From an uncultured Eubacteriales bacterium (GTDB lineage: Bacteria > Acidobacteriota > Aminicenantia > Aminicenantales > UBA8522): 10,854 bases of DNA. A program made the translations under genes and the position numbers. The stretch is taken from assembly GCA_964445305.1 (NCBI GenBank), contig CAYUKK010000176.1:1-10854 (forward strand). The letters are read 5' to 3'. The notes beneath the pieces are model-generated. The model saw nothing but the letters and a program-made list of their open reading frames with translations. It was not told where the DNA came from and did no database searches. Shown here one piece after another: positions 339 to 10,854 of the stretch. The first letter of the stretch is position 1, and each line of letters begins with the position of its first letter.

Positions 339-1370
339 ATGAACGCCCTCGTCCTGGTCTTCTCCCTCTTTTCTCGTCTTGCCTGTCGATTAAAGAACCT
401 TATCTACGATATTCACCTCCTTCGACCCGCACGAGCTCCGCTTCCGGTCGTTAGCATCGGCAGCGTTGCTATGGGAGGAACGGAGAAAACCCCTTTGGCC
501 ATGGAAATTCTCCGCTGGCTCCTCGAACGAGGGTATCGGCCCGCCCTCGTTTCTCGCGGTTATAAAGGCGGCTGGGAGAAAAAGGGGGGCGTCGTTTCGG
601 ACGGAAAATCGGTCCTTGCGACCTGGCAACAGGCGGGCGACGAGCCTTTCCTCATCGCCCAATCGGTTCGGGAAGCGGGCGTTTTTGTCGGCAAGAATCG
701 CCTCTCTTCCTGCCTTAGCGCCTTCAACCTCGGCTTCGATATCGCCGTCCTGGACGACGGCTTCCAGCACCGCCGCGTCGGCCGCGACCTCGATATCGCC
801 ATCTATCCCTCTCCCGAAATAAAAGTTCTCCGCGAGTCTCGCCAATCCCTCGGCCGCGCCGATATCATCCTCATCAAGACTTCGATTCAGAATCCGGCGC
901 TCCCATGGCTTCGGCCATCGCCGTTTTCCATTCGCCGCTCCTCAACCCTTCCCTCGGTCCGAGAAAATATCTTCCCTTACAGCGTTGAAGCCCAGGGAAT
1001 GTGGCAACTCTGGGAAGACAAGCCCCTTCCTCAGGTAGATTTAGAAGAAGTACCCCTGGTCGCTTTCTGCGGCATCGCCAGACCCGAGCGTTTTCTTTCC
1101 CTTCTCAAAACAACCGGAGCAAGGGTCGTTTCTTCCATTTTTTTCCCCGACCACTATCCCTACCCGGAATCGTCCATAGAAAAAATTCTTGCTCGGCTTA
1201 AAACTTCAGGCGCGTCAGCGGCCGTGACAACAGAAAAGGATGCGGTCAAAATCCTTGGCCACCGCGCTCGCTTTGGAAAAATCCCCGTTTATTATCTCAA
1301 GATCCGTGTCCATGTTGACCCCGGATTCTACGCCCATCTCGAAAATTTTTTAAAAAAAGCAGCCGGATAA
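339..1370 (+). CDS. lpxK: Tetraacyldisaccharide 4'-kinase (lipid A biosynthesis)
   Basis: 343-aa ORF with ATG start and GAAGG 7 nt upstream. P-loop motif PVVSIGSVAMGGTEKTP corresponds to E. coli LpxK PVVVVGNLTAGGNGKTP. Further matches are VSRGYKGG (VSRGYGG), LDDGFQH (TDDGLQH) and TTEKDAVK (MTEKDAVK). Hydrophobic N-terminus is consistent with a membrane anchor. Confidence 0.88.
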   Translation: MNALVLVFSLFSRLACRLKNLIYDIHLLRPARAPLPVVSIGSVAMGGTEKTPLAMEILRWLLERGYRPALVSRGYKGGWEKKGGVVSDGKSVLATWQQAGDEPFLIAQSVREAGVFVGKNRLSSCLSAFNLGFDIAVLDDGFQHRRVGRDLDIAIYPSPEIKVLRESRQSLGRADIILIKTSIQNPALPWLRPSPFSIRRSSTLPSVRENIFPYSVEAQGMWQLWEDKPLPQVDLEEVPLVAFCGIARPERFLSLLKTTGARVVSSIFFPDHYPYPESSIEKILARLKTSGASAAVTTEKDAVKILGHRARFGKIPVYYLKIRVHVDPGFYAHLENFLKKAAG

Positions 1371-1400
1371 AAAATTGAAGAGCGATAGATCATAACTCCT

Positions 1401-2360
1401 ATGAAATTTATAGAAACGATGGAAATAATAAAAAATTTACCCATAGAAATCGCCCTTCTCGCCTTCCGCTCCCTGTTTTTTGTCCTTCCCCGCCGTGTCT
1501 GCCTTTGTCTCGGCCAAATAGCCGGCCACCTCTTCTTCTCCTTTGACCTCCGTCACCGCCGCATTGCCCTGGCCAACATGGAAAAAGCCTTCGGCCTGGA
1601 GCTTCCCCCCTCCAAACGCTCCCGGCTTGTCCGTCAATCTTTCCTCCATTTCGGCCAAATGCTGGCCGATATCCTCAAGTGGTCATCCCTGAGTCAAGAA
1701 AAGAGAGAAGAACTGCTTCGAGTCGAGGGCGCCGAGAACATCCACCAAGCTTTGCGTCAGGGTCAGGGCATCCTTCTCTTCTCCGCTCACTTTGGCAACT
1801 GGGAAGTAGCCAGTGAGGCCCTGGCCAAGCTGGCTCCCCTTCATGTCGTGGCCCGTCCTCTCGACAGCCGCACCGCCGAAAAGGAGCTCCTCCGCTTCCG
1901 GTCAAGCCTCGGCGCAAGAATCATTTACAAGCACCAGGCGGCAAAGCCCATCCTCCAGGCTCTTCGCCGAAACGAAATGGTGGCCATCCTCATCGACCAG
2001 AATGTTCTCCGCAGTCAGGCCGTCTTCGTCGATTTCTTTGGCCTCCCTGCCGCCACCACTCCCAGCCTGGCCTCTTTCCATCTTCGAAGCCGTGCCCCCC
2101 TCCTCCCGGTTTTCTGCTATCCCACCTCTTCCCTCTCCTACCTCGTCAAGATCTTCCCCCCGCTCGATTTCAAGCCGAGCGGCGATTGGTCGGCCGACGT
2201 ATTGAAAATCACCCAGCATTCGACTAAGATGGTCGAAGCGGAGATCCGCCGCCGACCCGAGCTCTGGTTCTGGTTCCACGACCGCTGGAAAACGAGACCG
2301 CGGTCCGAGGTCGCCCCGTCCAAGACGCTGACGCCCGATATCCAAGGAAATAGAGCTTGA
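1401..2360 (+). CDS. lpxL: Lipid A biosynthesis acyltransferase, LpxL/HtrB (Kdo2-lipid IVA lauroyl/myristoyl acyltransferase) family
   Basis: 319-aa ORF starting 30 bp after lpxK. Hydrophobic N-terminal helix. SAHFGNWE matches the H-x4-E catalytic dyad region of the Lip_A_acyltrans family. Whether it is LpxL, LpxM or LpxP cannot be told by eye. Confidence 0.7.
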   Translation: MKFIETMEIIKNLPIEIALLAFRSLFFVLPRRVCLCLGQIAGHLFFSFDLRHRRIALANMEKAFGLELPPSKRSRLVRQSFLHFGQMLADILKWSSLSQEKREELLRVEGAENIHQALRQGQGILLFSAHFGNWEVASEALAKLAPLHVVARPLDSRTAEKELLRFRSSLGARIIYKHQAAKPILQALRRNEMVAILIDQNVLRSQAVFVDFFGLPAATTPSLASFHLRSRAPLLPVFCYPTSSLSYLVKIFPPLDFKPSGDWSADVLKITQHSTKMVEAEIRRRPELWFWFHDRWKTRPRSEVAPSKTLTPDIQGNRA

Positions 2361-2368
2361 GGCAGAGG

Positions 2369-3115
2369 ATGAGAGAAAAACGTGCCCCTGACGAATTAAG
2401 GCCCGTCAAGATTCAGCTTGATTATCTCGATTACGCCCACGGCTCGGCCTTCCTCGAAATCGGCAAGACGCGAGTCATCGCCGCCGCGACCGTCGACGAC
2501 AAAGTTCCGCCCTTCCTCAAGGGTATGGGCACGGGATGGGTGACGGCCGAATACGAAATGCTCCCCTGCTCGACCGAAAAAAGGACCATCCGCGAGAGAA
2601 CCCAGGGACGGATCTCGGGCCGAAGCCAGGAAATCCAGCGCCTCATCGGGCGGGCCCTCCGCGCCGCTACCGACCTCGATTCCCTGGGCGAGCGAACGGT
2701 CATCATCGACTGCGACGTCATCCAGGCCGACGGTGGCACCCGAGTCGCCTCCGTCACCGCCGGTTGCGTCGCTCTGGCCCTCGCCTTGAAAAAACTCCTC
2801 GATGAAAAGGTCATCGACCAGATGCCCCTTCGCCATCTCGTCTGTGGGGTGAGTGTCGGCATTGTCGACGGCCAGCCACTCCTCGACCTTGACTACAGCG
2901 AGGATTCCCAGGCTGCGCTCGATATGAACGTTGTCGAAACTGACGATGGGCATCTCGTTGAGGTCCAGGCCTCAGCCGAGAAAGCGCCGTTCTCCCGGAA
3001 GGACTTGGCATCGCTCCTCCGCCTTGCCGACAAGGGCATCAAGGAACTCATCCAAATCCAGAAGGCCGCTCTCAAGAAAAAAAGCCTCCTCTTCATGGCC
3101 TACGGCCGAAGTTGA
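2369..3115 (+). CDS. rph: Ribonuclease PH (tRNA nucleotidyltransferase)
   Basis: Near-colinear match to E. coli RNase PH throughout: DELRPVKI.., [57 protein letters not shown]....DL.Y.EDS.A..DMNVV. The true start is taken as ATG 2369 (GAGG 7 nt upstream) rather than the TTG 2357 reported by the ORF track. This leaves an 8-bp gap after the lpxL-family stop. Confidence 0.93.
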
Positions 3116-3134
3116 AGGGAAAAAGGAGGGAAGA

Positions 3135-4088
3135 ATGCGAAGGATTCTTGTCACCGGCGGGGCCGGCTTTCTCGGCAGCCACCTCTGCGAATACCTTCTC
3201 CGGGCGGGCGCGGACGTTGTCTGCGTCGATAACTTTTTTTCCGGGAGCAAGGACAACATCCGTCACCTCCTCGACCATCCCTACTTTGAGCTCATCCGCC
3301 ACGACGTCATCCACCCCCTCTTCCTCGAGGTAGACCAGATTTACCACCTCGCCTGCCCTGCTTCGCCCATCCACTACCAGCATAACCCCATCAAGACGGT
3401 CAAGACCAATGTCATGGGGACGATCAACATGCTCGGCCTGGCCAAGCGGATCAAGGCGCGCATCCTGCTCGCCTCTTCCTCGGAGGTTTACGGCGACGCC
3501 GAAGTCCATCCCCAGCCCGAAACCTACTGGGGAAATGTCAACCCCATCGGCCCCCGCAGCTGCTACGACGAAGGCAAGCGCGTGGCCGAGACACTGATGA
3601 TGGATTACTCCCGGCAGAACAATGTCGACATCCGCATCGCCCGCATCTTCAACACCTACGGCCCCCGCATGGCCATAAACGACGGCCGCGTCGTCAGCAA
3701 CTTCATTGTCCAGGCTCTTCGGGGCGAAAACCTGACTATCTATGGCGACGGCAAACAGACGCGCTCTTTCTGCTACGTCTCTGACCTCATCGAGGCGCTG
3801 GTGAAACTCATGAATAGCGAAGCAATCCGGACGCCGGTCAACCTGGGCAATCCCGTTGAATGCAGCGTTCTCGAGTTGGCCGAAATCATCCTCCGGCTCA
3901 CCCAAAGTTCATCGAGAATCGATTTCCGCCCCTTGCCCGCTGACGACCCGGCACGGCGTTGTCCCGACATTACGCTCGCCCGAGAAAAGCTGGGCTGGGA
4001 GCCCCGCGTGAGCCTGGAGGAAGGGCTTCAGAAGACGATCGCCTACTTCGAAGAAAAGCTTGAAATCAGGAACGGGCAAGGCCCGTAA
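3135..4088 (+). CDS. uxs: UDP-glucuronate decarboxylase (UDP-xylose synthase), extended-SDR NAD-dependent epimerase/dehydratase
   Basis: Start ATG 3135 ([16 protein letters not shown], Rossmann GxxGxxG) with AAGGAGGG RBS 5-12 nt upstream. The catalytic Y-x3-K is present as SCYDEGKR. Long stretches typical of UXS/ArnA-C-terminal decarboxylases are seen ([53 protein letters not shown]). The ORF-track N-extension from 2931 overlaps rph and is treated as an artefact. Confidence 0.85.
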
Positions 4089-4136
4089 GAATAGCTGGGC
4101 AAGACTTAGAAATGAGAAATAAAGGTCGAGATAAAT

Positions 4137-4168
4137 TTAGATAACGGGAATGCGAAGAAATAAAAAAT
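4137..4168 (+). promoter_or_regulatory. Candidate sigma70-like promoter in the AT-rich spacer upstream of the GT2 gene (TTAGAT-N18-TAAAAAAT)
   Basis: -35-like TTAGAT at 4137-4142 and an A/T-rich -10-like TAAAAA(AT) at 4161-4168. The surrounding 80 bp are strongly AT-rich relative to the ~60% GC context. A motif match only. Confidence 0.25.
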
Positions 4169-4173
4169 AAAGA

Positions 4174-4221
4174 GATGGATGGATAGATAGATGGATGGCC
4201 GGATGGATGGCCGGATGGATA
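4174..4221. repeat. Imperfect tetranucleotide tandem repeat, 12 units of GATR/GCCG (GATG GATG GATA GATA GATG GATG GCCG GATG GATG GCCG GATG GATA). It contains a 12-bp unit GATGGATGGCCG repeated 2.7x.
   Basis: Read directly from the sequence. 10 of 12 units are GAT[G/A]. It lies between the putative promoter and the GT2 start codon. Confidence 0.9.
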
Positions 4222-4294
4222 AACGAAGAATTTCTTGGCCAACGAAGAAAAAGACGGAGGACCAACAAAGGAAGAGGAAGAAACGGGGCGCCGG

Positions 4295-4981
4295 GTGAAG
4301 CTTTCGATCATTATTCCCGTTTACAATGAAGTTCGGACGATAGAAGAAATCCTCCGCCGCGTTCAATCGGTCGACGTCGGCCTGGACAAGGAGATCGTTG
4401 TCGTCGACGACGGCTCGACCGACGGCACCCGTGCCATTCTCGAGCGGCTCGCCTCGCCCGCCGTCAAAATCCTCTTCCACGCGAAGAATCAGGGCAAGGG
4501 CGCTGCCCTCCACACCGGTTTTGCGGCCGCCACCGGCGATATCCTCCTTGTTCAGGACGCCGACCTCGAGTACGACCCAAGAGAGTATCCCAAGCTCCTT
4601 GAGCCCATCCTGGACGGCCGGGCTGATGCCGTCTATGGCAGCCGTTTCCTCGGCGGTCCCCACCGCGTCCTCTTCTTCTGGCACTACGTCGGCAACCGCA
4701 TCATCACGACCCTCTCCAACATGCTGTCCAACCTCAACCTCACGGACATGGAAACATGCTACAAGGTCTTCAAAAGAGACATCATCCGCCAGATCAGCCT
4801 CAAGTCGAAGCGGTTCGGGTTTGAGCCGGAAATTACCCAAAAGCTGGCCAAGCTGAAATGCCGGGTCTATGAAGTCCCCATCTCTTACTCTGGCCGCGAT
4901 TATGCCGAGGGGAAAAAAATCACCTGGAAAGATGGCCTGGCCGCTATCTTCCACATCCTTCGCTTCCGCTTCTTCAATTGA
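4295..4981 (+). CDS. Family-2 glycosyltransferase, polyprenyl-phosphate sugar synthase type (DPM1/ArnC/GtrB-like)
   Basis: KLSIIIPVYNE..., VVVDDGSTDGT and QDADLEYDP (DxD) form the typical GT-A N-terminus of dolichyl/undecaprenyl-phosphate glycosyltransferases. Product is ~230 aa with no C-terminal TM segments, i.e. the short soluble DPM1-like form. The start is ambiguous: GTG 4295 (giving MKLSIIIP, with G-rich RBS-like sequence upstream) or the TTG at 4235 used by the ORF track. Confidence 0.8.
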   Translation: MKLSIIIPVYNEVRTIEEILRRVQSVDVGLDKEIVVVDDGSTDGTRAILERLASPAVKILFHAKNQGKGAALHTGFAAATGDILLVQDADLEYDPREYPKLLEPILDGRADAVYGSRFLGGPHRVLFFWHYVGNRIITTLSNMLSNLNLTDMETCYKVFKRDIIRQISLKSKRFGFEPEITQKLAKLKCRVYEVPISYSGRDYAEGKKITWKDGLAAIFHILRFRFFN

Positions 4982-5231: not shown

Positions 5232-5260
5232 TTGACTTTCCTTTGGCCATAAATATATTA
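5232..5260 (+). promoter_or_regulatory. Strong sigma70-like promoter for the flotillin gene: TTGACT-N16-TATATT
   Basis: -35 TTGACT at 5232-5237 (5/6 consensus) and -10 TATATT at 5254-5259 (5/6), with a 16-bp spacer, in an AT-rich patch. The predicted ~80-nt 5'UTR contains a GTTTCG-caat-CGAAAC stem-loop (5283-5298) and a GGAGGAGG RBS (5333-5340) 5 nt before the ATG at 5346. Confidence 0.5.
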
Positions 5261-5345
5261 TTTTTATTTCATTTAGCTACTTGTTTCGCAATCGAAACGG
5301 GCGAGTCATCTCCACGACCAAAGGAATGATTCGGAGGAGGTCATC

Positions 5346-6755
5346 ATGAGCCTTGTCTCCTGGCTTATCATCATCGGCATCATCGTCGTCCTCCTGGCAC
5401 TCATCATCATCGTTCTGGCCATCCAGTACCGCAAGGTCGGGCCTAACGAAGTCTTGATTATCTCGGGCGGCCGGAAGAGGACGGTCACTGCTCCGGACGG
5501 GACCAAAGTCAAGGTCGGCTACCGCTACCGCCTTGGCGGCGGCACATTTGTCATCCCCTTTGTCGAAACCGTCTACACCCTCCCCCTCGACGTCGTCACC
5601 CTGAACATCCGCACCCCTGAAGTCCTGACCCACAGCGGTGTGCCCATCATGGCTGAGGCCACGGCTCAGGTCAAAATCGATTCCTCGGACTCAGCCATCC
5701 GGCTGGCAGCCGAACAGTTCCTGGGCACGGGAAAAGAGGGTATTCGGGATGTCTCCCTCAACGTCCTCGAGGGGAAGATGCGGGAAGTTATCGGCACCAT
5801 GACCGTCGAGGAGATTTACCGCGGCCGTCATGAGTTCAATTCTCGCGTCGCTGAGGCCATCCGTGACGATTTCGCCCGCATGGGCTTGGTCATGCTCTCC
5901 TTCACCCTCAAGGACATCAGCGATACCCAGGGCTACCTGGATTCCCTGAGCAAGCCGCAAATCGCTGCTGCCAAGAGGGACGCCGCCATCGCTGAGGCCG
6001 AAACCGAGAAAGAAGCAGTCATCAAGTCCTCCCAGGCGCGCAAAGAGGCAGAGGTGGCCCGCCTCGCCGCTGAAGCCCTTATCGCCAAGGCCCAATGGGA
6101 AAACGAGGCCAAAAAAGCAGAATCCCAGGTCGCCGTCAACCAGAAGAAAGCCCAGGCCGATTTCTCCTACGAGCTCGAACGGTTCCGCCTCAGCCAGCAG
6201 ATCAAGAAAGAAGAGGCCAAGATGAAGGCCATCGAGAAGGAGGAGGCCATCAAGATCGAAGAGCTCGAAATCGCCCGGCGCGAGAAAGAGCTCGAATCGA
6301 GCGTCATCAAGCCGGCCGACGCCCGCAAGTACCAGATCAAGGCCGAAGCAGAAGCCGAGGAATTCCGCATCCAGGCCGAAGCCAAAGGTAAAGCTGAGGC
6401 TCTCCGCCTCGAGGGTGAAACCGAAGCCGAACTCTTGAAAAAGAAGGGCATGGCCGAGGCCGAGGCGATGCTGAAGAAGGCCCAGGCCTGGGAAAAGTAC
6501 AATCAGGCCGCCATCCTGGAAATGTACTTCCATATCCTTCCCGAGCTGGCCAAAGCCGTCTCCGAGCCGCTCTCCAAAGTGGATAAAATCGTCGTCGTCG
6601 GTGGCGGCGACAAGAGTCTCGGCACGACCAAGATCACGGCCCAGGTGGCTGAAATCCTTTCCCAGATGCCCGAGGTCGTCAAGTCCTTGACCGGAGTTGA
6701 CCTCAAGAAATACCTGAAGGAAAAGCTGACGCCGGAAGAAAAAGAAGAGAAATAG
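5346..6755 (+). CDS. floT: Flotillin-like SPFH/band-7 membrane scaffold protein (FloT/YuaG-type)
   Basis: N-terminal TM helix [20 protein letters not shown] followed by [15 protein letters not shown] (flotillin signature entry into the SPFH domain). It has a long C-terminal coiled coil with E/A/K-rich flotillin repeats ([43 protein letters not shown]). 469 aa. Confidence 0.85.
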
Positions 6756-6785
6756 CCTCCCGGAAGGCCCAAGGAGAGGCACGCC

Positions 6786-9131
6786 ATGATTTCAGAGAAA
6801 GCGAACCAAATCGGCACATCCCCCACCCTCAAGATTACGGCCAAGGCCAAGGCCATGAAGGCCGAGGGGATTGACATCATCGATTTGAGCGTCGGCGAAC
6901 CGGATTTCCCCACGCCCGAGAATGCAAAGGCGGCCGGGATTCGGGCCATCCAGCAGAATTTCACCAAGTATACGGAAAACGAAGGTATCCCGGCGCTCAA
7001 GAAAGCCATCATCGCCAGGATGAAGGAGGATTATGGCCTCGCCTATGAGATGAACGAGGTCATCGTCTCGACGGGCGCTAAAAGCTCGCTCTTCCTCCTC
7101 ATCCAGGCCCTGGTTAATGACGGGGAGGAAGTTATCATCCCCGCCCCCTACTGGGTGACTTACCCTCAGGCAGTCGTGCTGGCCAAAGGCAAGCCCGTTA
7201 TCATCCCGACCAAGGAGGAAAATGGCTTTCTTCTTACGCCCGAGGAGCTCAAGGCGGCCATTTCCCCGGCGACCAAAGCCCTCATCCTCAACAATCCCTC
7301 CAACCCAACCGGCGCTGCCTATTCCAGGGCTCAGCTCGAAGCTTTGGTTGATGTCATTCGCGGCGAGGACCTTTATGTTATCGCCGATGAAATCTACGCC
7401 AAGCTCATTTTCGATGGCTTCGAGTTTGTGAGCTTCCCCTCCCTCGGCGAGGACATCAAAGCCAAGACCATCCTTATCAGCGGCGTCTCCAAGTCCTACT
7501 CCATGACCGGCTGGCGGATAGGGTTTGCTCTGGGGCCGGCCGAAATCATCAACGCCATGGCTAAAATCCAGAGCCATTCAACCTCCAACCCTTGCTCCAT
7601 CTCCCAGCAAGCCAGCCTGGAAGCTCTGACCGGGCCGCAGCATGAGGTCGCCCGCATGGCCGCTGAATTCCAGCGCCGGCGCAACTACTGCCTGATGCGG
7701 CTCAACGCCATCCCCAATATCTCCTGTTTCAAGCCCCGGGGCGCTTTCTACCTCTTCCCCAATTTCTCGGCTTATTATGAAAAAGAGGCGGGCGGTGTTC
7801 TCATCCGGAATTCCTACGGCCTGGCCTACTACCTGCTCAAGGAAGCGAAAGTGGCCATCGTCCCGGGCGATTCTTTTGGCGCGGATAATTACATCCGTCT
7901 TTCCTACGCCACATCGATGGAGAACCTGGAGAAAGGGATGGACCGGATTATCGAGGCCGTCTCCAAGCTCAAGACGCCGAAGAAAATCAAGCGGGTCGCC
8001 CTCAACAACACCATCACTCGAGTGAAGAGAGCTGTGCCCGTTGACGCATCCCTGCCGACCAAGATGCGCGATGCTCTCGTCGCCGAGATGGAGGGACATC
8101 TTCCCGTCGAGAACTACTACGAATGGAACGCCAACATCGCGGGAATCGTCGTCCAGCTTCGAACGAATGTTGCGCACCTCTATGATTTCTGGGTCGAGAA
8201 CTGGTTTCCGGCCCAGCTCGAAGCGGATATCGAGCCCCACGGCATCATTTATGCTGTGGATGGAGTCGCCGGTCGGGAGCCGAGAGCTTTTTACAACTCC
8301 GAGACAAAGACAGGGGTCCTCGTCAACACGGATAACTACGGCCCGTTGCGGAGCCTCGCCCTTGGTCTGGTCATGGATGTCACGGAAAGGCTCTACGGCG
8401 CCTGCGCTATCCGCGGCATGGCCGCCGCTGTCGAGGACAACGGCCGAGGCCTTATCCTCGTCGGACCGCCTGGAACGCGGAAGACCGAGCTCTTCTTCGA
8501 GCTCCTCGAGGATAAGCGGTTCAAAATCCAGGCTAACGAAATCATTCTTGTCCGGGCCGCGGGCGGAAAGGCGCAAGCGGAATGCGTCGAGAGAAAGCTT
8601 TATATGCCGACGAATACGGTCGAGAACTTCTCGCGCCTGGCGCCTCTTTTTGACGCGAGCAAGTGCGAAAACGTTGTCATCCACAAGGACGGATGCCAGG
8701 ATGAGGCTTGCCTCAGGGGCGAAGATTGCCGCCTCGACCGGGGGTCTCCCTTCTGCTACAAGGCCTCCAAAGAAGCGCATGCCATGCTCGACCCCAACTG
8801 GATTGGGGGCAAAAGTGCCCACGCCAGACGGACGACCCTGAGCTGGATATTCTTTCTCCGCTATGACCCGTCATCGCCGGCTGCTGTCCGCCTGGAGAAG
8901 GAGGAAGCGCTGCGCATCCTTGAATCGGGCGAAGCGTTAGGTTTGAAGAAAGCCCTCTCTCCGGCCAAACCACAGCCTTACTACAACCCCCACCTTTTGG
9001 TGACGACGGAGGAACGGCTGGAGCTCCAGAAAGCGTTCTTCAGCCGATTGCTGGATATCGTCCCCTGCTATCTGTTCAACAGCGGCGTGGCCGGCGCCGA
9101 GACAATAAAGCAACTGACCGCGGGCGAATAG
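6786..9131 (+). CDS. Fusion protein of 781 aa. Residues ~1-400 are a class-I PLP-dependent aspartate (aspartate/prephenate) aminotransferase. Residues ~400-781 are a domain resembling the HPr kinase/phosphorylase C-terminal P-loop kinase fold.
   Basis: N-terminal half: NNPSNPTG, the SGVSKSYSMTGWRIG PLP-lysine motif (Lys236, nt 7491-7493) and a C-terminal IRLSYA.S region, all typical of the AspAT-Ib subgroup. C-terminal half: GRGLILVGPPGTRKTELFFELLEDKRFKIQANEIILV aligns in spacing to HprK [36 protein letters not shown]. A later EEALRILESGEA matches HprK EETLRILDTEI. The reading frame is continuous with no stop, and no RBS precedes the internal Met427, so a genuine fusion is favoured. RBS AAGGAGAGG precedes ATG 6786, which lies 30 bp after the flotillin stop. 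Confidence 0.8.
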   Translation: MISEKANQIGTSPTLKITAKAKAMKAEGIDIIDLSVGEPDFPTPENAKAAGIRAIQQNFTKYTENEGIPALKKAIIARMKEDYGLAYEMNEVIVSTGAKSSLFLLIQALVNDGEEVIIPAPYWVTYPQAVVLAKGKPVIIPTKEENGFLLTPEELKAAISPATKALILNNPSNPTGAAYSRAQLEALVDVIRGEDLYVIADEIYAKLIFDGFEFVSFPSLGEDIKAKTILISGVSKSYSMTGWRIGFALGPAEIINAMAKIQSHSTSNPCSISQQASLEALTGPQHEVARMAAEFQRRRNYCLMRLNAIPNISCFKPRGAFYLFPNFSAYYEKEAGGVLIRNSYGLAYYLLKEAKVAIVPGDSFGADNYIRLSYATSMENLEKGMDRIIEAVSKLKTPKKIKRVALNNTITRVKRAVPVDASLPTKMRDALVAEMEGHLPVENYYEWNANIAGIVVQLRTNVAHLYDFWVENWFPAQLEADIEPHGIIYAVDGVAGREPRAFYNSETKTGVLVNTDNYGPLRSLALGLVMDVTERLYGACAIRGMAAAVEDNGRGLILVGPPGTRKTELFFELLEDKRFKIQANEIILVRAAGGKAQAECVERKLYMPTNTVENFSRLAPLFDASKCENVVIHKDGCQDEACLRGEDCRLDRGSPFCYKASKEAHAMLDPNWIGGKSAHARRTTLSWIFFLRYDPSSPAAVRLEKEEALRILESGEALGLKKALSPAKPQPYYNPHLLVTTEERLELQKAFFSRLLDIVPCYLFNSGVAGAETIKQLTAGE

Positions 9132-9141
9132 GCTGAGCCTC

Positions 9142-9178
9142 GTCTTGCCAGCGGCAGCGACCCGATCTCTCTTTTTTC
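9142..9178 (+). terminator. Weak candidate intrinsic terminator after the fusion gene
   Basis: Imperfect GC hairpin (GUC-UUGCC-agc-GGCAG-c-GAC, 9142-9161) is followed about 10 nt later by CTCTCTTTTTTCT (9166-9178). The stem is bulged and the T-run is distal, so the call is weak. Confidence 0.2.
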
Positions 9179-9362
9179 TACCCCTTCATCGAGGTCATAG
9201 CAGACCTGGATCAAATTACGAACTTCAAAATCTTTTCTGACCACAAAATATACCTCTCTCCCTTGACTATTTTTCCAGAAAAATACTTCTCCTCCCTTCA
9301 GCCCTCTCCTTAACAGATCCAGGAAAACAAGATTTTCACATAGCCATTCTTTCAAAATAGTC

Positions 9363-9938
9363 CTAATTAGATTTATCCGAAAAGAGGCGGTTCTCGAGGG
9401 CTTCAGCCAGAAGGTGAAGGAGGAGAAGATGGACCTCCTGGACGCGAGGTGTGGAAGTCGAGGGAACATCGAGAAGATAATCGGATAGGGAGGCGAGCCT
9501 ACCACCGCCCTGGCCGGTCATGGCCACCGTCAGCATCCCTTTCTGGCGGGCCGCTTTGAGGCCCTCGACGATGTTGACTGAGGTCCCGCTTGTCGAAAGA
9601 GCGAGAGCAATATCCCCTTTGTCGCCGAGCGCCTCAATCTGCCGGCTGAAAACGTAATCATAAGACGAATCATTGGCCACAGAGGTAAGAGTCGACGTAT
9701 CAGTCGTCAGGGCGATCGCCCGCATGGGTTGTCTTATGCGGAGGAATTTGTTGACGAGTTCCGCGGCAAAGTGCTGGGCCTCAGCCGCGCTCCCGCCGTT
9801 GCCGAAAACGAGGATTTTCCGGCCCTCCCCAAGGGCCCTGGCGACGGCCTCGATCATGACCTCAAAGAGGTCACTCTTCTGCTCGAAAAAATTCTTGAGG
9901 ATAGCATGAATATCAACCTGAATGTATCCATATTTCAT
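9363..9938 (-). CDS. gmhA: Phosphoheptose isomerase (D-sedoheptulose-7-phosphate isomerase), SIS domain; LPS core heptose pathway
   Basis: 191 aa. [20 protein letters not shown] matches GmhA [47 protein letters not shown] matches [27 protein letters not shown]. The QEVHLLLLH region matches QEIHIKVIH. RBS AAGGAG lies 6 nt upstream of the ATG on the − strand. Confidence 0.9.
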   Translation of the reverse strand: [191 protein letters not shown]

Positions 9939-9974
9939 CGCCTGCTCCTTAGGTCTCGCTTATTTCCTTTGACC

Positions 9975-10003
9975 ATTATAACCTATTCCCACACATCCCG
10001 GAT
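9975..10003 (-). promoter_or_regulatory. Candidate gmhA promoter: perfect -10 TATAAT (− strand, + coordinates 9975-9980) with a poor -35
   Basis: The − strand reads GGTTATAATGG about 37 nt upstream of the gmhA ATG. No good TTGACA-like hexamer sits 16-18 bp upstream (ATCCGG/TGATCC). A hexamer match only. Confidence 0.3.
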
Positions 10004-10042
10004 CATTATTTCCTCTCGCTATCTCCACGGGAGTACTTCCAT

Positions 10043-10069
10043 GAAGAAAAGCTATGTCCTTTTTTCTTC
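10043..10069. other. 8-bp inverted repeat GAAGAAAA-(11 nt)-TTTTCTTC in the plsC-family/gmhA intergenic region
   Basis: Arms at 10043-10050 and 10062-10069, read directly. It is located between the acyltransferase stop (10168) and the gmhA promoter candidate. It could be an operator, or the terminator hairpin of the upstream − strand gene. No U-tract follows on the − strand. Confidence 0.3.
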
Positions 10070-10167
10070 GTGGCATTCCTCCTTCAAGAGGCAAATTTCA
10101 GGACTCTGAGCTTTCACCGTCAAAATGGATTCGGCTTTAAGGCCGTCCCGGCGAGTGCTTCCTTCGG

Positions 10168-10854
10168 TCAATTGCGAAGTCCTGATTCAATAGCGGCCTT
10201 GACTCTTTCGATCAACACCGACATGTTGCTCTGGTCATATCCCTCGACCGGAATGGGCGGATGGAAAAGCACATGGATGAGCCCCCGTCGTGTTGAAAAC
10301 CTTCCCCGCGGCATGAGTTCATACGTTCCCCTGATGGTGACGGGCACAATCGGCGTCCGGCTTTCCAGAGCGAGAAAAAAGCCGCCGCGCTTGAAAGCCT
10401 GGAGGCGGCCATCCCGGCTCCTCGTTCCCTCGGGAAAAATAAGGAAGGAATAGCGGCGGCGGCGCATGAGCTGGATGGCTTTGTCAATACTCCGCTTGCC
10501 CCCCCACATCTTCTTCCTGTCGACAGGAATGAAGCCGACGTATTTCATGCCCACGCCGATGATCGGAATCCGGAACACTTCTTTTTTGAGGATGACCCGG
10601 ATGGGTCGGGGGATGAGCCAGAAGAGCAGGGGTCCGTCGAGGAAGCTCAAATGGTTGGCCATGAAGACATAAGGAGCTCGGCGATCCAATCGCTCCCGGC
10701 CAGAGACCTCGACCTTGAGCCCGAGAATACGGCAACCGAGGCTCATCGCCCACTTGGCAATCCGGAGGAGAGGGTCGCGAACGCCGAACGGCCAGAAGAG
10801 GAGGAGCAAGAGGAAAAGAAATATCGTCAGGAGAGCATAGATGAGGAGGAGAAT
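10168..10854 (-). CDS. 1-acyl-sn-glycerol-3-phosphate acyltransferase (PlsC/LPLAT family). The 5' end lies outside the window.
   Basis: Two LPLAT-family acyltransferase motifs are present: FMANHLSFLDGPLL (H-x4-D block) and FPEGTRSRDG. The ORF track's TTG at 10809 is not a real start. Translating the − strand to the window edge continues without a stop through a hydrophobic segment (ILLLIYALLTIFLFLLLLFWPF), so the gene is truncated by the window. Confidence 0.75.
   Translation of the reverse strand: MLLLIYALLTIFLFLLLLLFWPFGVRDPLLRIAKWAMSLGCRILGLKVEVSGRERLDRRAPYVFMANHLSFLDGPLLFWLIPRPIRVILKKEVFRIPIIGVGMKYVGFIPVDRKKMWGGKRSIDKAIQLMRRRRYSFLIFPEGTRSRDGRLQAFKRGGFFLALESRTPIVPVTIRGTYELMPRGRFSTRRGLIHVLFHPPIPVEGYDQSNMSVLIERVKAAIESGLRN

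Follow-up and report, generated by a model that had tools for sequence, protein, structure and literature searches.

A flotillin gene is followed by an aminotransferase–PEPCK-fold fusion gene in Aminicenantes and other uncultured lineages

The function of bacterial flotillins and the identity of their true client proteins are still debated, and most of the proposed flotillin cargo derives from proteomics of detergent-resistant membranes. To our knowledge, NfeD is so far the sole genetically fixed partner of a bacterial flotillin. Genes for SPFH2-type flotillins occur as a rule in one operon with a gene for an NfeD2 protein (YuaF, YqiJ), and 17 genomes were found to encode an SPFH2 protein without NfeD2 (Hinderhofer et al., 2009; PMC2636767). 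Another arrangement is the flotillin-associated rhodopsin (FArhodopsin) tandem of SAR11, HIMB59 and Pseudothioglobus, a same-strand pair with a 16-nt spacer that occurs across lineages, was found from its conserved context alone and was read as a flotillin-organised partner (PMC10308929). As for HflK/C-FtsH and eukaryotic flotillin-1/2, these SPFH proteins build large membrane-attached domes which enclose or organise their partners (PMC11260169). Here, we describe a flotillin gene located on a 10.85-kb stretch of DNA (contig CAYUKK010000176.1), the whole of which is referred to as the window, and the gene directly downstream of it, which encodes a fusion of a class I aminotransferase with a compact domain of phosphoenolpyruvate carboxykinase (PEPCK) fold. 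Genes were assigned by Pfam and NCBIfam profile searches. Close relatives of the window are metagenome-assembled genomes (MAGs) of Candidatus Aminicenantes, and we regard the two genes as one instance of a conserved module of two genes present in Aminicenantes, Zixibacteria and other uncultured lineages.

Conservation of the gene pair and the search for NfeD

In 118 of 120 testable loci (~98%), i.e., loci with at least 1.8 kb of DNA ahead of the fusion gene, the gene immediately preceding it on the same strand encodes a flotillin. The pair was kept in all 81 Aminicenantes-type loci and in 37 of the 39 loci from distant clades, and spans at least three phylum-level lineages. As the loci were gathered via the C-terminal domain of the fusion, these counts describe the fusion side only and do not cover the share of related flotillins that lack a fusion gene; a homologue search with flotillin itself yielded only relatives at least 82% identical and is unsuited to a flotillin-based census. 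When one genome per species was scanned, the domain was detected in 421 genomes, of which the best 80 loci, essentially all of the Aminicenantes type, were taken. A second scan, of metagenome contigs and seeded with distant homologues (40–55% identical), provided 80 further loci, and single look-ups added those of Zixibacteria and of a Planctomycetota-labelled MAG. When redundancy is removed by identity of the C-terminal domain, 98 loci are left at 90% and 28 at 70%, the lowest pairwise identity being 38%.

Gene order kept across distant genomes is a classical sign of physically interacting products. The two genes also seem to have been inherited together: the pairwise-identity matrices of flotillin and the C-terminal domain correlate with r = 0.93, as strongly as the two halves of the fusion do (0.94), and in a Mantel test the observed value was reached by 0 of 999 permutations. 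The median spacer between the genes is 25 nt in the 81 Aminicenantes-type loci, 114 nt in the distant clades and 3 nt in Zixibacteria. Synteny within Aminicenantes breaks down to either side of the pair; the gene for the family 2 glycosyltransferase (GT2) is often missing, one subgroup is devoid of lpxK, lpxL and the epimerase gene, and a 1.9-kb gene after the fusion is variably present. The upstream neighbours in distant clades include ABC permeases, (sodium) symporters, SelA, multihaem cytochromes and FG-GAP proteins, and in these loci we detected no other gene of the window next to the pair. In Zixibacteria the order is GT4, flotillin, fusion, ndk and PEPCK, and in the Planctomycetota-labelled MAG it is flotillin, fusion and malate dehydrogenase. 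The original prediction, made on the window alone, had placed a GT2 gene upstream of flotillin and the fusion gene 30 bp downstream, both of which we recovered, and had left the meaning of the adjacency to a comparison of neighbourhoods; the linkage proved to be conserved among relatives and the adjacency is very unlikely to be incidental. We consider the functional linkage of flotillin and the fusion to be strongly supported.

In loci with a disrupted pair or without the flotillin, genes inserted there or lying nearby belong to mobile defence or toxin types. TIR, PIN and Mrr-type restriction endonuclease genes separate flotillin from the fusion in two loci (L113, 3237-5424; L129, 4128-5286), and a gene for a PD-(D/E)XK nuclease or a HepT toxin lies near the fusion in two others (L130, 2213-2593; L140, 2752-3132), with no flotillin seen in the available 3.4–3.8 kb. 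Several MAGs (L050, L055, L077, L085) contain a fusion open reading frame (ORF) split into overlapping or frame-shifted pieces, which resembles an assembly error (draft or long-read frameshifts) more than the in-frame stops or selenocysteine also considered; such split ORFs probably account for many of the 'partial' annotations inside long contigs. Many of the loci L005-L083 are fully syntenic with Aminicenantes yet are titled 'uncultured Eubacteriales', 'Clostridiales', 'Candidatus Desulfaltia', 'Terriglobales' or 'Burkholderiales', and are probably mislabelled or mis-binned MAGs.

As for NfeD, no NfeD (PF01957) or YqiJ/DUF1449 gene was detected in the window, where every long ORF belongs to another family, in agreement with the initial reading of the locus. 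The source is a short metagenome contig, and the longest record retrieved for it, of 9.1 kb, adds no flanking sequence to the window; in the closely related syntenic contig L167, however, precomputed Pfam assignments place no nfeD gene in the 10 kb to each side of the pair. The same applies to NfeD and DUF1449 within 8–10 kb in all five relatives with a Pfam gene table (L167, L085, L086, L170, L171), as well as to the inserted or upstream ORFs scanned around the pair, whole genomes being outside this search. The E. coli YqiJ and YbbJ sequences used as phmmer queries matched none of 10,840 ORFs in 2.23 Mb of loci, a search whose sensitivity is low given the poor conservation of NfeD2 proteins.

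The flotillin, the fusion enzyme and their metabolic neighbours

The flotillin matches Pfam Band_7 (PF01145) at residues 30-222 with an E-value of 1.6e-30, and Flot (PF15975) at residues 345-454 with 24.6 bits, slightly below the 27-bit cutoff. The Flot match of the flotillin from L086 reaches 43.7 bits, and a precomputed PF15975 match is present in nearly all close homologues, which are annotated as flotillin with both PF01145 and PF15975. The NCBIfam FloT model aligns end to end with 399.1 bits; as this misses the equivalog cutoff of 700 bits, the protein is described here as a FloT-like relative and not as an equivalog. A hydrophobic N-terminal membrane anchor is located at residues 5–26, as read from the translation and not from a topology predictor, and the C-terminal half is Glu/Ala-rich. 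The protein combines the features of an SPFH2/FloT-type flotillin, i.e., an SPFH domain, a Flot or Glu/Ala-rich coiled-coil domain and an N-terminal anchor, and its assignment as a flotillin is well founded.

The N-terminal half of the fusion matches Aminotran_1_2 (PF00155) with 268 bits over residues 30-388, and retains an intact PLP-lysine motif (SKSYSMTGWRIG) along with NPSNPTG and DEIY. Its best NCBIfam model is aspartate transaminase with 443.6 bits, and as this is below the equivalog cutoff of 617 bits, specificity for aspartate is only presumed.

In turn, the C-terminal domain belongs to no Pfam family, matches no PEPCK model of Pfam or NCBIfam, and searches of Pfam, NCBIfam and PDB sequences were uninformative. 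It was resolved by structure comparison alone, to which it owes its designation as PEPCK fold: the domain exhibits the two-lobed architecture of this fold, at 15% identity to its structural match. Sequence membership in ATP-dependent PEPCK (PF01293/NCBIfam pckA, with YGGEMKKG, H232, GxxGxGKT, LIGDDEH and R333) was not found, and the alignment with the neighbouring PEPCK family described below is confined to the P-loop region (hhalign probability 47%). The HprK-like signal is faint: HprK_rel_A matches weakly, PF07475 occurs in a few homologues, and the domain of the window itself does not classify as Hpr_kinase_C. The enzyme had been designated an aminotransferase-kinase fusion; the aminotransferase half stands, whereas 'kinase' is imprecise for a domain of PEPCK fold.

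The family of this domain (~380 aa) is small: a set of 1.84 billion proteins clustered at 50% identity contains 200 cluster representatives that belong to it. It keeps the Walker A motif (GPPGTRKT), an acidic residue after it and an invariant ERK motif, and the residues that never vary are concentrated in a surface motif of its N-terminal part, EWNANI...QLRTN..HL..F. Stand-alone homologues exist (L173, L174), one of which directly follows the gene for nucleoside diphosphate kinase (NDK). A conserved cluster of five cysteines (C227-C257 of the domain, window 8664-8756; SKCENV...C..xxC....C.LD.G..C) is situated in a low-confidence insert and might bind a metal or an Fe-S cluster; most of these cysteines are substituted in P0086 and P0095, two homologues from Zixibacteria.

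Among 93 informative loci, 49 have, adjacent to the pair, a separate gene for a divergent PEPCK of ~610 aa that keeps all catalytic motifs (e.g., L039 11264-13096, L171 10787-12643). This gene occupies three positions, either downstream of the fusion or upstream of flotillin on either strand. Flotillin is therefore tied to the fusion more tightly than PEPCK is. The window does not contain this gene, and neither do, at this position, 10 of the 12 informative loci (18 of 20 overall) that share >70% identity with the window in the C-terminal domain and are thereby its closest relatives. NDK and malate dehydrogenase are also recurrent neighbours. In the Planctomycetota-labelled MAG, the malate dehydrogenase following the fusion (L170, 3644-4600) scores 349 bits with NCBIfam, above the cutoff, and represents another oxaloacetate-using enzyme. 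Based on the domains of the fusion and on its PEPCK, NDK and malate dehydrogenase neighbours, we assign the module to the aspartate/oxaloacetate/PEP/malate node.

Promoter, leader and gene layout of the window

Features of the window are listed in Table 1. The near-consensus promoter that the original prediction had put ahead of flotillin is present as a candidate element that matches 10 of 12 consensus positions. Three promoter-like sites were found in the region as opposed to 1.6 ± 1.6 expected, a count not significant alone; what makes the promoter credible is its conservation. The block CTTGACTT...CCATAAATATATTATTTTTATT is nearly invariant in 13 close relatives, in several of which the DNA 5' of it is unrelated because the upstream genes differ. 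In the 250 nt preceding the flotillin gene, matches to at least 10 of the 12 consensus positions were detected in 51 of 117 loci (45 of 78 of the Aminicenantes type and 6 of 39 distant ones) vs. 0 of 351 control coding windows, at a median position of 104 nt before the flotillin ATG. The block thus behaves as a phylogenetic footprint, and its conservation supports the predicted flotillin promoter.

The leader between promoter and flotillin had been noted for a stem-loop at 5283-5298. The hairpin is present and longer than described, and the whole 5' untranslated region (UTR) folds with z = -2.4. It is nevertheless specific to the window and not conserved in relatives: it lies within a 7-nt insertion unique to the window, is missing from relatives with 93%-identical flotillin, and does not appear in the consensus folding of the leader of 12 relatives (-0.27 kcal/mol). 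A conserved leader structure acting as a regulatory element was rejected, as only a stem of 4–5 bp and one covarying pair survive. This stem, 5303-5307/5328-5332, just upstream of the flotillin ribosome-binding site (RBS), is the sole leader pairing kept in the 12 relatives; one of its pairs varies on both sides (AU, CG, UG, UA) and 60.6% of cells are paired, which is weak evidence. An Rfam scan of the whole window gave no match in the flotillin leader, hence no known riboswitch or small RNA. No plus-strand terminator was detected between flotillin and the fusion by a terminator scan, and no convincing one after the fusion when an inverted-repeat search was added. Positions 9132-9362 of the window are non-coding.

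In Aminicenantes the pair is found amid genes of envelope biogenesis (lpxK, lipid A acyltransferase, sugar epimerase, GT2, gmhA and plsC; 339-4981 and 9363-10809 in the window). This context is specific to Aminicenantes and is not shared by other clades.

Table 1. Genes and other features of the 10.85-kb window
Feature	Position	Strand	Basis or remark
lpxK	339-1370	+	Window gene table
Lipid A acyltransferase (lpxL)	1401-2360	+	Window gene table
RNase PH (rph)	2357-3115	+	Window gene table
NAD-dependent epimerase/dehydratase	ends 4088	+	Window gene table
GT2 glycosyltransferase	4235-4981	+	364-nt gap before flotillin gene
Predicted sigma-70-type promoter	5232-5261	+	TTGACT-N16-TATATT or N18-TATTAT; 10/12 consensus positions
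5'UTR hairpin, 9 bp, loop CAAU	5280-5288 pairing with 5293-5301	+	RNA folding; contains 5283-5298
Flotillin RBS GGAGGAGG	5333-5340	+	Read from sequence; GGAGG invariant in 12 aligned relatives
FloT-like flotillin (SPFH2 type), 469 aa	5346-6755	+	Pfam, NCBIfam
Spacer between flotillin and fusion, 30 nt	6756-6785	+	RBS AAGGAGAGG at 6771-6779
Fusion gene, 781 aa	6786-9131	+	Starts exactly 30 nt past flotillin stop
Class I aspartate aminotransferase half, 400 residues	6786-7985	+	Pfam, NCBIfam
Compact PEPCK-fold domain, 381 residues, Walker A GPPGTRKT	7986-9131	+	Structure comparison
gmhA-like SIS gene and PlsC-type acyltransferase gene	within 9363-10809	-	Converge on flotillin/fusion genes

Readings of the pair and comparison with known systems

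The promoter, flotillin and fusion very likely constitute one conserved transcription unit, from which both genes would be co-transcribed. The fusion enzyme rather than NfeD probably represents the fixed operon partner of this flotillin and fills the slot of NfeD, and it is likely that flotillin physically organises the enzyme at the membrane. That the fusion is a flotillin 'cargo' or client, as originally proposed, is suggested but not proven by gene order. A membrane-anchored flotillin oligomer would recruit or organise the soluble fusion at the cytoplasmic face of the membrane, where interconversion of aspartate and 2-oxoglutarate with oxaloacetate and glutamate may be coupled directly to a nucleotide-dependent step acting on labile oxaloacetate. 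This step could be PEP interconversion by the PEPCK-fold domain itself, or oxaloacetate could be handed over to the neighbouring PEPCK.

Several observations weigh against such an organisation. A flotillin is not adjacent to the homologue in the genome of one Zixibacteria member (L084, chromosome CP070796.1, 10003-11550), in which only about the last third of the aminotransferase is detectable (from around residue 258 of 400), nor to the fusion in contigs L130 and L140, and neither of the two stand-alone homologues of the C-terminal domain examined adjoins a flotillin. The fusion has no predicted membrane segment and resembles a soluble enzyme. The PEPCK-fold domain is devoid of the canonical PEPCK motifs YGGEMKKG and LIGDDEH, and its Walker lysine is substituted in some Zixibacteria homologues; because of these two features the domain may be non-catalytic. 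An NfeD gene may also lie elsewhere in these genomes. For hosts that are uncultured, co-transcription, membrane localisation of the fusion and its contact with flotillin are all read from the genes.

The main rival to physical organisation is co-regulation only, whereby flotillin and an enzyme of the oxaloacetate node are produced together, e.g., in starvation or upon a switch to amino-acid catabolism, with no contact between them. A common promoter and a short spacer account for co-expression without protein contact, the soluble character of the fusion fits, and PEPCK, NDK and malate dehydrogenase join the cluster as they would in ordinary pathway operons. Yet, co-regulation seldom fixes order, strand and adjacency over such divergence while the PEPCK partner moves or leaves, and no other gene of membrane stress or starvation accompanies the pair; we therefore hold this explanation to be rather unlikely.

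It is less probable still that the PEPCK-fold domain is a non-catalytic adaptor in the role of NfeD, which docks on flotillin and tethers the aminotransferase, with phosphoryl transfer left to the 610-aa PEPCK. Such an adaptor would be compatible with the catalytic motifs being missing from the domain and intact in the 610-aa neighbour, with a Walker lysine that is not invariant, with the grouping of invariant residues in the N-terminal surface motif and with the lack of an NfeD gene next to the pair. However, most members retain GxxGxxKT, the subsequent acidic residue and the invariant ERK motif, NDK recurs even beside a stand-alone homologue, suggesting real nucleotide chemistry, and the stand-alone homologues are not linked to flotillin. 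Adjacency that is merely inherited by synteny in one lineage and functionally meaningless, as the largely syntenic Aminicenantes neighbourhood (lpxK, lpxL, rph, epimerase, GT2 ... gmhA, plsC) might suggest, is essentially excluded by 37 of the 39 distant-clade loci, which keep the pair with none of the other window genes detected, and by Aminicenantes flanks that break on both sides of an intact pair, the differing flanks of distant loci opposing also a recent transfer of one large block.

Organisation of the fusion by flotillin can be extended to a more far-reaching form. As SPFH proteins are known to form cages, an enclosing or platform role of the window flotillin is conceivable, and a flotillin cage or platform might house the fusion, together with PEPCK, NDK and malate dehydrogenase where present, as a nanocompartment channelling unstable oxaloacetate and CO2 at the membrane. 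We regard this form as improbable; if true, the fusion in such an SPFH-built nanocompartment would be the first soluble enzyme to serve as a dedicated client of a flotillin in bacteria. Independently of it, the pair offers a concrete, testable flotillin partner, a defined two-domain enzyme of the aspartate/oxaloacetate/PEP node, and draws attention to compact PEPCK-fold proteins as a small family that is still uncharacterised. It also hints that part of the central carbon metabolism of abundant uncultured sediment bacteria (Aminicenantes, Zixibacteria) may be organised at the membrane.

In the literature, we found no description that combines Aminicenantes with flotillin or links a bacterial flotillin with PEPCK and an aminotransferase. 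Bacterial flotillin operons as such are already known, and what is new here is one with a soluble metabolic partner. With respect to the C-terminal domain, ATP-dependent PckA (PF01293) comprises ~540 residues as opposed to ~380 in this domain, which possesses an extra Cys-rich insert and in which the GDDEH and Lys-Lys/His metal-binding motifs are not recognisable. The domain shares a P-loop followed by an acidic motif with HPr kinase/phosphorylase and HprK-related kinases. In the cages of HflK/C-FtsH and flotillin-1/2 the enclosed partners are membrane proteins; the window flotillin is known from sequence alone.

The NfeD2-SPFH2 operons (B. subtilis yuaF-floT/yuaG, E. coli yqiJ-yqiK) are closest in gene family. 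Like the window pair, they comprise a FloT-type flotillin with an N-terminal anchor in a tight operon with one fixed, co-evolving partner (PMC2636767). Identity of the window flotillin to YqiK is only 21–30% in local alignments. The partner in these operons, however, is a small membrane protein (150–210 aa) with an OB-fold, encoded upstream, whereas here it is a 781-aa soluble metabolic enzyme of two domains, encoded downstream. The closest precedent in logic is the FArhodopsin tandem (PMC10308929). Its partner is an integral membrane rhodopsin and thereby a natural raft resident, in contrast to the window pair, in which flotillin is accompanied by a cytosolic-type enzyme of central metabolism in unrelated hosts.

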